From Candidatus Heimdallarchaeota archaeon (lineage in GTDB: Archaea > Asgardarchaeota > Heimdallarchaeia > JABLTI01), in assembly GCA_030614005.1 (NCBI GenBank), contig JAUWKS010000077.1:1-14294 (forward strand): DNA of 14,294 nucleotides, given 5' to 3'. Below, one piece after another: positions 2-10,971 of this stretch (position 1 is its first letter; each line of letters begins with the position of its first letter). The notes beneath the pieces are model-generated. The model made no database searches. It worked only from the letters and a program-made list of their open reading frames with translations, and had not been told where the DNA came from. The position numbers were made by a program, and so were the translations under genes.

Positions 2-427
2 AGCAGACATAGAACCATGCAAAGCAGTGGTTCGATTGGTCGCTTCGCTGGATTCCTAAGCTACAAAGCACGTCGAGTAGGTAAGAAAGTAATAAGGCTC
101 AGTGAACGAAGAACAACCAAAAGATGCAGTTACTGCATGAATATGGAGAAAAGGAAACTCTCCGAACGAACTATTAGTTGTGACTATTGTGGACTAGTAA
201 TAGATCGAGACACAAGCAGTGCAGGAACCCAAATGCAGCGCTTCCTCGCTTTACTAGCACTATCACAGAAACGCCTTGTGGTCAGGCAACGACTCTTGAA
301 AGATATTCGAGCCTTTCGAGAGAAGTTTTTTACGATACACAGCCAAACGTCAAATGAAAGTTTCTCCCCCTCCAGGGGAGTTGGGTGGACTCGCAGAAAG
401 TCAAAAGTTAACAAAAACTCTTATTAG
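2..427 (+). CDS. tnpB: TnpB-like RNA-guided endonuclease (IS200/IS605 family), C-terminal part, truncated by the window start
   Basis: The frame is open from nt 2 (SRHRTMQSSGSIGRFAGFLSYKA), so the listed ATG at 17 is internal. It shows the F..L.YKA helix, 'KKVIRLSERRTTKRC', a zinc ribbon CSYC...CDYC and a RuvC-III-like 'DRD' motif, in the standard TnpB C-terminal order. Confidence 0.85.
   Translation, partial: SRHRTMQSSGSIGRFAGFLSYKARRVGKKVIRLSERRTTKRCSYCMNMEKRKLSERTISCDYCGLVIDRDTSSAGTQMQRFLALLALSQKRLVVRQRLLKDIRAFREKFFTIHSQTSNESFSPSRGVGWTRRKSKVNKNSY
330..400 (+). mobile_element. Putative IS200/IS605 right-end / omegaRNA scaffold region overlapping the tnpB 3' end
   Basis: GC-rich island in AT-rich DNA. 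Hairpin CTCCCC(364-369)/GGGGAG(375-380) followed by GGACTCGCAGAAAG, which resembles ends I recall from archaeal tnpB elements. The TnpB omegaRNA is known to overlap the gene's 3' end. Boundaries are approximate. Confidence 0.45.
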
Positions 428-1909: not shown

Positions 1910-4900
1910 TTATTCTATTGGAGTGATAATTATTTGGGCAAGGGATCTAAAGCTTGAGTAAAAAGTATTCGTTGCTGATTTTCCAATGTATCTTTCGTTC
2001 AAATCACCGAAGAATTCAAGCGCTTTGAACTCTTTTCTGTTTAAATTGCTTACCAATGCTCTCCTAAGGAAGAGTTCAATTGATTGTGAGTCCTTTGTTC
2101 TTTTGGGTGGGTCGAAAGCTTCTAGAGATAATCTAATATCTGTTGCATCATCTATCTCTTTTACAAAATAAAGTGAATCAATTGTCCCAAGGATAAAGTT
2201 CAGATGCGCTGCTGGAAGTTTAACCCTACCAAGAGAAATGTACCACAATTTTCTCTTATCATCAAAATCAACTTTGTTTCCTACTGCGAAAACATCAAAA
2301 GGTAAGCTTAAAGCTGTTCGAATGCTTTGATTGAAGATTGGTATTGCTTCTTCTACTATTGTTCTTCTGATAATTGATTTTCGTGCACCATTTATACGTT
2401 TCTTCTTGTATGCTGCTTTCAAATTATTATTTATTTTTCCTTCTAAAGAATTATTACCATTTGAAGAAATATCCTTCTTTCCAACACCATCCCAGAAAAA
2501 TTTCGATTCAAGATCCTCAATGTATTGAGAATCAACAAACCATATTGAAGTATAAATTTTCATCAGGTTTTGAAAATCTCCAACTAATGACCCAAAGCTA
2601 CCTTTAATTTTTGTGACAAGCAAATGACTTAATGCTTTTTCGAATTCAATTGGGTGATATTTTAAGGAAGGAGATATTTCATTAACAACTTCCTGAGAGA
2701 GCAGATTCAGTTCTTTGCTCCCTGTGAAGATTTTTCTCATAATGCCTCCTCCGGCCACTAAACTTGTAAGAGATCTATGCAACGTTTTCAATTTCTTCAA
2801 AGTAATACCGAATTTTTTCTTTCCGCTAATATCTCCAGCAGAAATTTTTGATTGCTTGTCAAATTTAGAGATAGCATTTTTCAAATTCTTTTGTCGTCTT
2901 TCAATAATTTTTACCGCAAATTTCACCCAAAGATGTTCCAAAACCTTCGGATACCCTAAAATTGTTTCAACTTTACCTTCAAGTTGTAAGGAAGGAATTT
3001 TAACTTTGAGTGATTTTAATTGAGAAACAGTTATATTACTCATCTTCTTTTGATCAATTGGTTTCAACCAACCAGAATTATAGGCTTCATGTGCTAATTC
3101 AATTGCAGTTGGGAGAATTGACTTTATTTTTGTGTTTTTATCAAGAATTTTTATTCCTTCACTGGAGAATAATTCACGACCACCAGGTCTTCTAATAATT
3201 TTATCTAGAAACTCTTTTAAAATGAATAAACTTTGAAGTTCAGAAGCAAGTTTTTCTATCATTCTAAGTAATTCATTTGGGGGGGAAGGCAATTTTTCTG
3301 GACCGAAAATTGTCTGTAATATTCTTGAAATAGTAGTTTCAAGAGATGAACGAAATGATTGAGAGAAGAAACCAAGATTTTCAAACGTTTCAAATCGTTG
3401 TAAAGTAGGTTTAGCACGAGAAATTCTTCTCAGCACTGTTTTCTTAGTATCTGGAACAATGTTAAATTGTAGTTTCCTTTCAAATTCACGGATACTATTT
3501 GCTAAAATAATTTCTGGTTTGCTTCTCCTGCCTTGAACGGTTTTCTCCAAACAATCAGCAATGAGAGTATAAACCATATCTGGAACATCACGTAATTGAT
3601 AGGGTTGTATCACATTCTGCAAAAAGTAAAGAATCATCAAATCTTGTGTAGAAGGATTCTTTTCATTTGTTAATGTTGAATAAGTTTGCCCAATTACATT
3701 GTACAAAATAACAGCTTCATCTAAAGATGTTCTGAATTTTTCAAGAGCTTCTTTGGATAGCTTCTTTACAGTGGGGCCCAAGGATGAAAAAGTTGGGTCT
3801 GCTAGAAGTATGAAAGGGTGTTCCTTCTTGACTGTACTAATAAATTCCTCATAGACTTTATCTAAAATCAATGATTCATTTTTCACAACATCATTTGGTG
3901 TATATTTAGAAGTAACTAGTCTAATTATCAAGAGAATTCTTTCTAGAACCCAATTTTTATCCACTAAAGCATCTTTCAATATTTTTGCTAATGTTGTCTC
4001 AACAATTTGATCCAATTCACTCTTAGCGAAAACGTTCTCTTTTGACATAGAAACGAATTTTAGCGGGAATTTTTTGAACAATTTCCGATAAAGTTCTTTG
4101 TTTGTTGCTTTTATTATTTCTGAGACAACCTTGGGTAATTTATCGTTTTTAGCGACCAATATTTTCTCAAAGATTGTTCCTTCGTCAATTAAATCAACAC
4201 CGGATATTTCAATAGACCCTCGTGCCGACAAAGCTCTGGAAGCTTCCATTAACTGAGAAAAAACTTTACCAATTTCTTCAGTAATTTCCTTCCTGGAAAC
4301 AGATGTTTTTTTGTTGAGAAAAGCTTCAATTAGTTTTTTAACTTCATTCATAGGGTTTGAGTGGGACGCAAAATAGAGTGGGAATAGAGCATCATCCTTT
4401 ACACCTTGAATGTAAATATATCTTGCAAGCTCTCGTTGCAGTTCACTTTGAGACATAGAAGATAGTTTTATTGAGTCCTTGGATTGAGACCACGTTTCGA
4501 AATCCGCTTGATTTACCCAAATATCTTCAAACAAGGCAACAATTTTTGGTTTGAATGCTTTTGTGAAATAGCGTACTTTATCACTTGATTTCTTATACAT
4601 GAAGTGTGCTGCAGAAATTATTTGGTCTATTCCTTCCTCCATCCTTGGAACAAGTCCAATACTTGTATAATGTGACTCGAATTTGGTAACAATTTCTTTT
4701 GCTAAAACTTCAGCAAAATTAACTATGAAATTCAAATCTTTATCTGGACCCGAATAGCCTCGAATGGCAACCAAAATGACAGGATTTTGCTCACCAACAA
4801 CAACCATCTTTGAAACGATAACACCATTTGGAAATCTGGACAAATTAATGCTAGAATTTTTTTTATACTCTGGTGAAGATTTATCCCCTCCGAGACCTAT

Positions 4901-5023
4901 TTCTTCTGCGAAACTTGCTAAGGCTCCACCTAGAGCAGATACTAATGAAGTATCCGTTTGTATATAACCAAGTGAAAGAAAATCTGTATTATCTTCGCGT
5001 GAAATAATTATCTGAGAGTCCAA
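1910..5023 (-). CDS. Large hypothetical protein P1 (1037 aa): N-terminal longin-like domain plus long helical region; paralog of 7789..10971
   Basis: 3.1-kb uninterrupted ORF with a TTG start; an in-frame TAG at 5056-5054 bounds the 5' end. The N-terminus reads as beta-beta-alpha-beta-beta-beta-alpha-alpha (QIIIS / FLSLG / LVSALGGALASFAEEIG / SINLSRF / GVIVSKMVVV / PVILVAIRG / two helices), the longin topology. It is collinear with P2 along its whole length. No transmembrane segment or signal peptide seen. Confidence refers to the CDS; the longin call is about 0.6. Confidence 0.9.
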   Translation of the reverse strand: MDSQIIISREDNTDFLSLGYIQTDTSLVSALGGALASFAEEIGLGGDKSSPEYKKNSSINLSRFPNGVIVSKMVVVGEQNPVILVAIRGYSGPDKDLNFIVNFAEVLAKEIVTKFESHYTSIGLVPRMEEGIDQIISAAHFMYKKSSDKVRYFTKAFKPKIVALFEDIWVNQADFETWSQSKDSIKLSSMSQSELQRELARYIYIQGVKDDALFPLYFASHSNPMNEVKKLIEAFLNKKTSVSRKEITEEIGKVFSQLMEASRALSARGSIEISGVDLIDEGTIFEKILVAKNDKLPKVVSEIIKATNKELYRKLFKKFPLKFVSMSKENVFAKSELDQIVETTLAKILKDALVDKNWVLERILLIIRLVTSKYTPNDVVKNESLILDKVYEEFISTVKKEHPFILLADPTFSSLGPTVKKLSKEALEKFRTSLDEAVILYNVIGQTYSTLTNEKNPSTQDLMILYFLQNVIQPYQLRDVPDMVYTLIADCLEKTVQGRRSKPEIILANSIREFERKLQFNIVPDTKKTVLRRISRAKPTLQRFETFENLGFFSQSFRSSLETTISRILQTIFGPEKLPSPPNELLRMIEKLASELQSLFILKEFLDKIIRRPGGRELFSSEGIKILDKNTKIKSILPTAIELAHEAYNSGWLKPIDQKKMSNITVSQLKSLKVKIPSLQLEGKVETILGYPKVLEHLWVKFAVKIIERRQKNLKNAISKFDKQSKISAGDISGKKKFGITLKKLKTLHRSLTSLVAGGGIMRKIFTGSKELNLLSQEVVNEISPSLKYHPIEFEKALSHLLVTKIKGSFGSLVGDFQNLMKIYTSIWFVDSQYIEDLESKFFWDGVGKKDISSNGNNSLEGKINNNLKAAYKKKRINGARKSIIRRTIVEEAIPIFNQSIRTALSLPFDVFAVGNKVDFDDKRKLWYISLGRVKLPAAHLNFILGTIDSLYFVKEIDDATDIRLSLEAFDPPKRTKDSQSIELFLRRALVSNLNRKEFKALEFFGDLNERYIGKSATNTFYSSFRSLAQIIITPIE

Positions 5024-5303: not shown

Positions 5304-6359
5304 ATGGTTGTGAAACATCGCATGGCTTTCAACATTATCAAAGAACAAAGAATGATTCGTACAATCTTTTACTCACTACTTCAATCTGCAGAGCTTATTG
5401 CTGATGATAAGCAATTAAGTGACGTATTTGTTTCCAACGTGGGAAAATTTGTTCGAGAGAGAACAATAATTGATGAAGGAACAAAAGAAATGAAAGAGGT
5501 TGCTTCAGAATTATTAACTGTTTTAGGATGGAAAAGTATCAGCATAAATTATAATAATAATCAAGGGACTGGAAAAGTTCTCCTTGGGAGAAATAGGTAC
5601 ATCATTAAAGAAGTAACAGATAACAAAGGGACTTTGTTATTTATACAAGCGATTTTTCAAGGAATAGGATACCATCTGTTTAATGCTCCAACCGCTGCTA
5701 CCGTGAAGCTTTCATTTAGCACAACAAGTCATTATGAAATTACCCTTCAAAGATTAAGAGAAGCTAGTTCAGAAGAAAGGCCACTAAGATCATCTGCCGG
5801 TTCAGCTTTAGTTGTAGATACATCACTTCATGGTGATTTGGAGATAAGCGATATTTTCAGTCCAATCTTCCAGAAAAGCTTACCTGAAATCTTTCTATTT
5901 GAAACTGCTTGGAAAGTTATTACCGAATCGTATGTTGCTAATTTTTCCGCAGAAGGAGATGAATCCCTAAGGGAAGCATTAAAAAATGAATCTATGGTAA
6001 ATCTTTCTCGATTCATAACTAAGATAATTGAAGAAGAAACTGAAGAAGAAATATTGAATGTGTCAGAATTAATTGGTGAGTTTATTGTTAAAATCCTTAC
6101 AACAAAAACCAATGAACCCCTTTCTAATTTGCTTCAGTCAACTCTCCAAGATCGTCATGCTAAGAGTTACTTAATTTACTATGAATGTCGAAAATTCTGT
6201 GCTGATAAGAAAATGCCTAACAGGTGTACATTTATTCGTGGTATGTGGGTAGGTATCTTAAGTGAAATCTATGGCATACCAATTAAAATTAAGGAATTAT
6301 TCCATGCAGGCAAAAGAGATCGATATTGTATGATGGAATTAGCTCCTGATAAAAATTAA
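5304..6359 (+). CDS. V4R/Bet3(TRAPP)-like fold protein, probably with two tandem domains
   Basis: The C-terminal V4R signature is CTFIRGMWVGILSEIYGIPIKIKELFHAGKRDRYCMMEL (C..RG...G...v.vkE..[C/H]...D..C). The N-terminal half has a second Bet3/V4R-like pattern (NVGKFVRE...LLTVLGW-beta...FIQAIFQGIG...ATVK...HYEITL) with no cysteines. An alternative start at 5322 has GTGA upstream. Confidence 0.8.
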   Translation: MVVKHRMAFNIIKEQRMIRTIFYSLLQSAELIADDKQLSDVFVSNVGKFVRERTIIDEGTKEMKEVASELLTVLGWKSISINYNNNQGTGKVLLGRNRYIIKEVTDNKGTLLFIQAIFQGIGYHLFNAPTAATVKLSFSTTSHYEITLQRLREASSEERPLRSSAGSALVVDTSLHGDLEISDIFSPIFQKSLPEIFLFETAWKVITESYVANFSAEGDESLREALKNESMVNLSRFITKIIEEETEEEILNVSELIGEFIVKILTTKTNEPLSNLLQSTLQDRHAKSYLIYYECRKFCADKKMPNRCTFIRGMWVGILSEIYGIPIKIKELFHAGKRDRYCMMELAPDKN

Positions 6360-10700: not shown

Positions 10701-10971
10701 GTTCTAAATCACCAAAATCCCGTATTGCGATCATAATAGATGGTTTATAATTATCTATTTCTAGCCATTTAGATATCAAAACTCCATTCTGGAATTTAGA
10801 ATAATTAGCATTTGTTGCACCGATATCAGATAACCCCATCTCTATTGCAAAACTTGCAAGTGCACCACCAAGAGCTGAAACTAAAGCAGCATCATCTTGG
10901 ACAGAACCTATTGAGAAAAAACTTGTAGTATCTTCATGCGAAATAATGATTTGTGCAACCAATTGTATCAT
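7789..10971 (-). CDS. Large hypothetical protein P2 (1060 aa): N-terminal longin-like domain plus long helical region; paralog of 1910..5023
   Basis: 3.2-kb ORF. Blocks shared with P1 in the same order: QIIIS, LVSALGGALASFA, F[PQ]NGV, DIW.NQ, DALFPLYFA, VDLI, IFEKI.VAK, PLKF, KKE.PF, YFLQN, SILP, AY..GW, LWV.FA, GG...KIF, YIG. Confidence refers to the CDS; the longin call is about 0.6. Confidence 0.9.
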   Translation of the reverse strand: MIQLVAQIIISHEDTTSFFSIGSVQDDAALVSALGGALASFAIEMGLSDIGATNANYSKFQNGVLISKWLEIDNYKPSIMIAIRDFGDLEQYHHMFLIDYGTLLANKIISTFEKLYTGGGEIPRLENALKLIPKVVNELYKDSPNTLKEFAKKMDKNVSQLLADIWENQSDKGIHRLAFRSHKFEPAKIQQMKDDFTKYFYQEGVAIDALFPLYFAGADDFRLVDKTINDYLKKNSKTARTDISNEISKIVSQLSKMSSSRSRRRKQEIESVDLINADLIFEKIQVAKLGTIEKTRTQILEEIYKTLLQKLYQNYPLKFLSCSETKHIDIPFIKETFEKTAKSIINKSYANTEQISKQIFSILSNIASNYTPEEVINQSEEILNRVQDQFIELIKKEDPFLILADEKLKRLLNISTKLAKEAFEQFRSAQDEAMALWYIIRQINKSISHLKITTIPNLIEIYFLQNLVRQYQFRSIPKIVFRLVNGVLRDVSSASPSKDPVLSLMQRNIRSFERDAQFSIPNGIKISILKQFKSSKITRESFENIEALSFFSKAFSNSMELTVAKILEMFFGTKEHPQPPQLLSEAIEKIVFNSQGIFSFRSIIQAITEQPGAQALFSKDAESLLLTALKYQSILPSPLELARIAYETGWFTDAKSTKPSDKISSTKIAPKNVNPSSIKRDSSKISDSKFLIKRVTIETNGLTDKITLLIKDPIILTELWVLFAESAFRNRYQSLNNYLHKIEAKQKTSSGSTTKKKRYASIIKKTKSLMKALNQLFSGGNFFQKIFARKKDLRNLLYEASLEQFSALNYYPENFAIDSEQGIIYGRKIISDTTAVLGSFSLLSELYASTWVRDSEYVRKLKEDILWSVLEKNSKRNLPLEKKILENLQQEAASRGKLDQETVVRNTIEQEVSLLFKKVVREAIGVAFDSIKDDLLVRLDNRTKDFYIEMGSINIDKKYLQPDYEKMNHTKFLKTSDGKTRVLMMIDDLLPTFSSRKKKAHSMRVYLRDGLKDTLRTRHFKAFNQLGELVDEYIGEQAADLFFTRSRILEQLILESIDQS
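7892..7914 (+). repeat. 23-nt imperfect direct repeat, copy 2 (inside the P2 3' coding region; copy 1 at 5031..5053)
   Basis: 21/23 identity to the sequence immediately upstream of P1. Confidence 0.6.

Follow-up and report, generated by a model that had tools for sequence, protein, structure and literature searches.

The window analyzed here, meaning the whole 14,294-nt stretch of DNA, belongs to a Heimdallarchaeota genome of 3.6 Mb with about 33% G+C and 90% completeness. Two large paralogous genes, which we designate P1 and P2, lie on its minus strand, and each is divergent from a neighboring gene. The following features are referred to below:

1910-5023, minus strand: P1, 1037 aa, defined by its open reading frame and translation and by a full-length AF2 model
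4586-5023, minus strand: predicted longin-type domain of P1, aa 1-146, from DSSP assignments on two AF2 models and fold matches
4964-5020, minus strand: predicted beta1-loop-beta2 of P1, aa 2-20, second most conserved 13-mer
4907-4945, minus strand: residues 27-39 of P1, LVSALGGALASFA, core of predicted helix alpha-1
4805-4846, minus strand: predicted beta3-turn-beta4 of P1, aa 60-73, third most conserved 13-mer
5304-6359, plus strand: 351-aa protein, divergent from P1
7789-10971, minus strand: P2, 1060 aa, paralog of P1 with 32% identity in a full-length, end-to-end alignment
10846-10884, minus strand: P2 copy of the helix, aa 30-42 counted from the ATG
10768-10806, minus strand: predicted beta3-turn-beta4 of P2, aa 56-68, NYSKFQNGVLISK, conserved with P1
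11173-13839, plus strand: HerA/DUF87-type ATPase, 888 aa, divergent from P2

At its start (2-427, plus strand), the contig encodes the C-terminal portion of a protein resembling TnpB/Cas12f1 and carrying a TNB domain (E 7e-14). The upstream codons of P2 include a stop in two orthologs (G005 and G011), and a TTG or GTG start is conserved three codons downstream. Judging from these sequences, the ATG listed for P2 (10971) is probably wrong and the conserved TTG at 10962 the true start. With this start, both paralogs would open with M-[DV]-[AS]-Q-I-I-I-S. The upstream regions of P1 and P2, compared in five genomes, have nothing in common beyond AT-rich boxes, and we saw no shared regulation.

Gene organization and distribution of the P1/P2 family

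The gene order ACS, P1, 351-aa gene, LarC, P2, HerA-like ATPase, and downstream gene is fixed in four other genomes (G010, G009, G007, and G005), and the HerA-P2 pair is present in a second genus too. A family HMM found matches in 10/10 other genomes of one GTDB family and in 0/289 genomes representing 29 further families of the phylum. Across 185,579 species genomes, a pattern scan returned 17 loci, nearly all in Heimdallarchaeota or Promethearchaeati MAGs. Among Heimdall-type Asgard archaea, a single GTDB family encodes P1/P2 proteins, and because of this restriction they more likely represent a lineage-specific elaboration than the direct ancestor of a eukaryotic complex.

The HerA-like ATPase, with 69-93% identity among genomes of the family, is far better conserved than P1 and P2 and is encoded by 11/11 genomes of the family versus one partial match elsewhere in the class. 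It carries an N-terminal extension of about 320 aa matching no assigned family. The gene of about 363 aa downstream of the ATPase has no Pfam match.

The 351-aa protein ends with a V4R-like motif, C..FC...NRC.FIRG.W.G.LSE...HAGKRD.YC, in which a His replaces the usual V4R Cys. Its nearest Atlas clusters include V4R in 15% and 97% of their members, and one of its relatives shows a sub-threshold V4R match (E 0.029). Compared with tandem V4R proteins, it reaches an hhalign probability of 1.3% (E 0.041). It has no Pfam match, the Pfam V4R model misses the family in every genome searched, and its profile does not match any PDB sequence. These sequence signals weakly suggest a V4R/Bet3-like protein. 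The 351-aa family is present in 57/80 genomes of the class, most of which lack P1 and P2, and no P1/P2-like gene was found at four loci encoding its relatives in other families.

Conservation of a 13-residue peptide in both paralogs

Translation of the reverse complements confirms that LVSALGGALASFA is encoded by both P1 and P2. The two DNA copies differ at 8/39 bases, all synonymous: seven third positions and one first position of a Leu codon (TTA vs CTT), which therefore differs at two positions. This agrees with the preliminary description of the locus, made from the sequence alone, which had reported the same peptide and the same number of silent differences. Its count of 29 matches in the first 42 aligned residues becomes 28/42 when counted by hand; the N-terminal excess of identity that it pointed out is real, with 25 identities in the first 40-column window of the P1/P2 alignment versus about 12 in a typical window. 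The 13 residues form the longest identical stretch of this alignment, and a run of that length arose in 7/20,000 shuffles of the identity vector. The second longest is the nonapeptide DALFPLYFA (P1 4367-4393, aa 211-219; P2 10324-10350). The identity of the helix is genuine and significant.

We aligned 30 P1-type and 24 P2-type proteins and computed the entropy of each column. Among these 54 sequences, residues 27-39 have the lowest entropy of any 13-mer in the protein (0.22 bits); residues 3-15 and 60-72 come next, at 0.52 and 0.55 bits, and the mean elsewhere is about 1.8 bits. Since the helix stands at 0.22 bits against this average, conservation is not equally high along the protein, and the strong purifying selection previously proposed for the helix is borne out, no other part of the protein being so constrained. 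The segments beta1/2, alpha-1, and beta3 are the three most conserved of the protein, alpha-2 and alpha-3 being far less so, and 25 of the 56 invariant columns fall within residues 1-86. Nine helix residues never change (L27, A30, L31, G32, G33, A34, L35, F38, and A39), nor do E41, G43, and L44 just past the 13-mer. V28 is replaced by I in 2/54 sequences and S29 by A in 1/54. The variable positions are A36 (A/T/S/N), S37 (S/N/D), and E40 (E/V/Q/I). In beta1-loop-beta2, Q4, I6, E10, T13, F15, S17, and G19 are invariant, as are N60, F64, and G67 in beta3-turn-beta4, where S62 and N66 are nearly so.

At the nucleotide level, all 13 helix codons vary synonymously among 19 distinct DNA copies. Codons of both the AGT and the TCN classes are used for Ser29; the serine was thus retained through a switch of codon class. 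Close orthologs from G000, the genome of the window, and from G010 show a dN of 0.061 and a dS of 0.39-0.53 for both genes, with zero nonsynonymous changes in the helix. Between P1 and P2, the proportion of synonymous differences is 0.72 overall, that is, saturated, and 7-8 of the 11.3 synonymous sites of the helix differ (pS about 0.66). P1 and P2 each form a clade with 100/100 support by maximum likelihood, which, together with the saturation of synonymous sites between them, upholds the earlier proposal of an old duplication. As these sites are saturated, recent gene conversion between P1 and P2 is ruled out. Conversion or chance identity as the origin of the shared helix is extremely improbable, given the eight synonymous differences in 39 bases, close to the saturation level of the whole genes, the fixation of the same residues in 54 sequences of both clades, and the rarity of such a run among the shuffles.

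With an entropy of 1.34 (vs about 1.8), the C-terminal 37 residues rank second in conservation among the 50-residue bins. An invariant Y-I-G motif (P1 Y1012-G1014, positions 1982-1990 of the window) is located there, within the last 37 or so codons of both genes. This conserved extreme C-terminus could be a second interaction module.

Predicted fold of the N-terminal domain and comparison with known longin proteins

We obtained AF2 models of full-length P1 (mean pLDDT 83.5) and of its residues 1-147 (pLDDT 68.5), both based on a shallow alignment of 54-62 sequences. In both models, DSSP assigned five strands (beta1 2-8, beta2 15-18, beta3 60-64, beta4 67-73, and beta5 82-88) and three helices (alpha1 25-41, alpha2 94-114, and alpha3 128-145). 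The resulting order, beta-beta-alpha-beta-beta-beta-alpha-alpha, is that of longin domains. Unlike in roadblock domains (alpha-beta-beta-alpha-beta-beta-beta), no helix lies ahead of beta1: beta1 begins at residue 2, and a conserved start codon immediately precedes it in all orthologs.

Among 48,161 chains compared with VIA-align, longin domains ranked at the top, each spanning residues 1 to about 146. The three best matches, with 122-129 aligned residues, were the TRAPPII chain 7e2c_H (Z 10.0, 129 aligned residues, rmsd 3.5), sedlin 2j3w_A (Z 9.8), and synbindin 2zmv_A (Z 9.6). The SRX domain of the SRP receptor (Z 8.6-8.7), Sec22 (Z 8.0), and the AP mu/sigma subunits (about 8) followed, so that the lead of TRAPP over SRX, Sec22, and AP subunits is of 1-2 Z units only. 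Mon1 was also among the full-domain matches, and CPLANE, BLOC-3, FNIP2, NPRL, and C9orf72-SMCR8 chains were among the structural matches. Roadblock chains (MglB, LAMTOR, and Asgard roadblock) did not exceed Z 7 (6.5-7.0), and their alignments ended at residue 117. The best Foldseek match was the Lokiarchaeal longin dimer 8yqg_A (E 7e-4, probability 1.00); Sec22b, Lst4, and Tca17 also reached a probability of 1.00.

Sequence comparisons did not return these families. P1, P2, and the family and N-terminal profiles gave no meaningful match with Pfam, NCBIfam, PADLOC, or PDB sequences (none at all with PDB sequences for the N-terminal profile). Sixteen N-terminal domains, searched with E values up to 10, matched none of the curated Pfam longin families (Longin, Sedlin_N, Sybindin, Fuz_longin, and others), nor is the domain recognized by longin or roadblock sequence profiles. 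Robl_LC7 (PF03259) matches neither the N-terminal domains nor any other part of the window; its 13 matches in the genome all lie outside it. Searched against 1.84 billion representatives, the N-terminal profile retrieved its own family and two spurious matches to repetitive proteins, and a search for shorter proteins with this domain gave contig-end fragments only. The models and fold searches nevertheless support a longin-type N-terminal domain, closest in shape to the TRAPP longins, and place the conserved helix as its alpha-1, as the preliminary description had predicted.

The trunk of about 900 residues is modeled as all-helical, with a small C-terminal alpha/beta part. Neither Foldseek nor VIA-align, run with the full-length model, gave a credible fold match past residue 150, and with this undivided query no DENN match was obtained for residues 150-1037. 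The pLDDT of alpha-1 is low (41-65 across the two models, about 55 in the full-length one). With the trunk included, the value for beta1 improves from 55 to 81 and that for alpha-1 does not, a weak hint from the models that the trunk may attach elsewhere and leave alpha-1 uncovered. In the full-length model, DALFPLYFA is close to the longin domain, and a number of the alignments with longins run on to residues 214-220. The loop between alpha-1 and beta3 (P1 aa 45-59, window 4847-4891) is 7-10 residues longer than in P2 (aa 48-55). It is Lys/Glu/Ser-rich, variable, and predicted to be disordered in P1 (pLDDT <50), and short and conserved in P2.

Three groups of known proteins can be compared with P1 and P2. 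The TRAPP core longins (TRAPPC2/sedlin, TRAPPC4/synbindin, and TRAPPC1/Bet5) are the best full-domain matches and have the same order of secondary structures. In TRAPP, two longins are joined via alpha-1 and beta3, and the pair bears the Rab on its single-helix face (PMC3747258). However, a TRAPP longin is a stand-alone subunit of 140-220 aa and the P1 domain heads a chain of 1037 aa; the domain gave no sequence-profile match, and Sedlin_N finds nothing in the genome. TRAPP longins associate with subunits of the Bet3/V4R fold; the 351-aa neighbor of P1 is at best weakly V4R/Bet3-like.

Large paralogs with a leading longin domain are likewise found in Mon1-Ccz1, Fuzzy-Inturned, HPS1-HPS4, FLCN-FNIP, NPRL2-NPRL3, and C9orf72-SMCR8. 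Unlike in these paired eukaryotic GTPase regulators, no second or third longin or other fold was detected by Foldseek or VIA-align in the trunk of P1, and P2 is dispensable in one lineage. A GP motif has been described for GAP-type longins (PMC12290439). This motif of the FLCN/SMCR8/NPRL2 class is absent from beta1-beta2, where the consensus of residues 1-20 is MDAQIIISREDNTDF.S.G.; R9 is fixed in P1 and is H, R, N, or Q in P2. The third group, the Asgard stand-alone longin and roadblock proteins (8yqg, 9jue, and Thor-RB/MKD1-RB of PMC10933270), comes from the same phylum and shares the core fold, and 8yqg, the best Foldseek match, was deposited as a dimer. These proteins are small or fused to a GTPase, whereas the P1 domain heads a large chain and does not have the N-terminal helix of roadblocks.

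P2 loss and possible roles of the helix

Four genomes of the genus do not encode P2: G002 (contig C153), G003 (C164), G006 (C221), and G008 (C188). In G006, G002, and G008, the block consists of the downstream gene, HerA, LarC, the 351-aa gene, and P1, and the gap between HerA and LarC at the expected P2 site is 273 bp. Over the whole genomes of all four, the family HMM detects P1 only, the extra short matches being P1 C-termini adjoining ACS. The P1 sequences of the P2-less genomes are sister to those of the P2-bearing G004 and G005 (94/99 support). As the P2-less lineage is nested among P2-bearing lineages, the loss of P2 is secondary. P1 retains every invariant helix residue in these genomes. 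An obligate P1-P2 heterodimer therefore cannot account for the invariance, for which the preliminary description had suggested a P1-P2 heterodimer or a shared partner: the helix is not kept solely for P1-P2 pairing. Self-pairing, a common partner, and intramolecular packing are possible, as is cross-pairing where both paralogs exist. This clean loss with retention of the P1 helix, together with the analysis at the level of the helix, is new, and the lineages with one paralog versus two provide a natural experiment.

P2 orthologs are interrupted in two MAGs, at about codon 201 in G001 (contig C250) and at codon 523 in G005. The G001 interruption is a GAA to TAA change on a low-coverage contig. 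That of G005 is a frameshift, but the databases contain an intact protein whose N-terminus is identical. Both are probably assembly errors, although they may reflect early P2 decay.

On a helical wheel, L27, F38, L31, I42, L35, and V28 form one hydrophobic stripe (0-100 degrees). Invariant small residues border it, namely A39, G32, and G43 along one edge and A30, A34, and E41 along the opposite edge. Of the outward-facing residues, S29 and G33 are fixed (98% and 100%) and positions 36, 37, and 40 vary. Positions 29, 30, 32, 33, 34, 36, 37, and 39 are never bulky in the 54 sequences. The small-residue face noticed earlier is therefore present, even though its outermost positions vary. The dimer interface of longins "consists of beta3 and alpha1", beta3 being its edge strand, and the GTPase site of the dimers is on the face with a single helix from each domain (Levine et al., PMC3747258). 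The same central-helix region is responsible for roadblock dimerization (Tran et al., PMC10933270). The literature thus agrees with the preliminary statement that longins dimerize through alpha-1 and use this surface for GTPases.

The stripe (L27, V28, L31, L35, F38, and I42) most likely packs on the five-stranded sheet, and the remaining positions would give a smooth surface. Alpha-1 and beta3 would be the elements for side-by-side pairing, as in longin and roadblock pairs, and alpha-1 would sit on the single-helix face holding a partner, usually a small GTPase. This surface would be a working interface inherited from the pre-duplication protein, serving self-pairing (and potentially cross-pairing in genomes with P2), the binding of a partner shared by the paralogs, or both. 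That this surface is an interface, what it would bind, and the oligomeric state are inferred from the conservation of alpha-1 and beta3. We give an inherited pairing or partner interface an even chance of explaining the invariance of the helix. In its favor, conservation is concentrated in beta1, beta2, alpha-1, and beta3, the last two being the published interface elements. Against it, the outward A36, S37, and E40 vary, which fits a helix held mainly by packing on its own sheet, the AF2 confidence of alpha-1 is low and the underlying alignment shallow, the conserved gene block contains no small GTPase gene, and longin and roadblock profiles do not match.

A purely structural constraint, in which the helix is wedged between its own sheet and the same chain, with Gly and Ala allowing close packing and no partner involved, is conceivable but rather unlikely. 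It would fit the invariance of the stripe and of both small flanks and the variation at the outermost positions 36, 37, and 40. The conserved residues of beta1, beta2, and beta3 could simply be the core of the helix itself, and DALFPLYFA is close enough to the longin domain to be drawn into alignments, with model ranges from 1 to 214-220. However, alpha-2 and alpha-3 pack on the same sheet and are much less conserved, G33 (100%) and S29 (98%) are kept while facing away from the stripe, and including the trunk in the model does not raise the confidence of alpha-1. Moreover, where alignments take in such distal segments, these stand in for alpha-3, a helix lying on the other face of the sheet. 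The groove of alpha-1 and beta3 might instead dock a helix of the same protein, for example the conserved C-terminal helices, in a closed state. In Ykt6, Sec22, and VAMP7, the SNARE motif folds back in this manner onto the longin domain. The conservation of the C-terminal bin, with Y1012 and G1014 invariant, and the presence of longin SNAREs among the structural matches are compatible with such a docking, but no SNARE-like heptad motif was found, and we consider this analogy very unlikely to hold.

An obligate heterodimer in which the alpha-1 helices of P1 and P2 pack together, and are identical for this reason, is improbable. It would account for the identical alpha-1 and beta3 residues of both paralogs, and P1 and P2, in all genomes that have both, are separated by about 6 kb and keep the same gene order. 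Mon1-Ccz1 and FLCN-FNIP are eukaryotic longin pairs of related subunits. Related subunits also form the longin complexes Bet5-Trs23 of TRAPP and NPRL2-NPRL3 (PMC3747258, PMC10933270). The secondary loss of P2 in four genomes, with an intact helix in P1, argues against this pairing as the cause of the identity, as does the divergence usually seen between the two helices of known longin heterodimers.

Whichever role the helix fulfills, the family combines a longin head with a giant protein whose trunk has no recognized fold, and its candidate interface elements have been fixed through an old duplication. Residues S29, A30, G32, G33, and A34 of the helix and N60, S62, and F64 of beta3 make a short target for mutagenesis and interaction assays, which could reveal whether longin platforms in archaea already function in the eukaryotic manner.

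No small GTPase gene was found in the conserved gene block. The genome has 40 Ras-type GTPase matches, none in the window, which are candidate partners of an interface common to P1 and P2. Conceivably, P1 (and P2 where present), paired through alpha-1 and beta3, could form with the trunks, and perhaps with the V4R-like neighbor, an exchange factor or scaffold for one of these approximately 40 GTPases, as an independently elaborated archaeal counterpart of TRAPP or of Mon1-Ccz1-type regulators; we regard this proposal as improbable. A more conventional Asgard GTPase-regulator cluster is found elsewhere in the same genome, on G000 contig C57 (about 31900-34700), where a Ras-type GTPase gene, four roadblock-domain genes, and a V4R-domain gene lie side by side.
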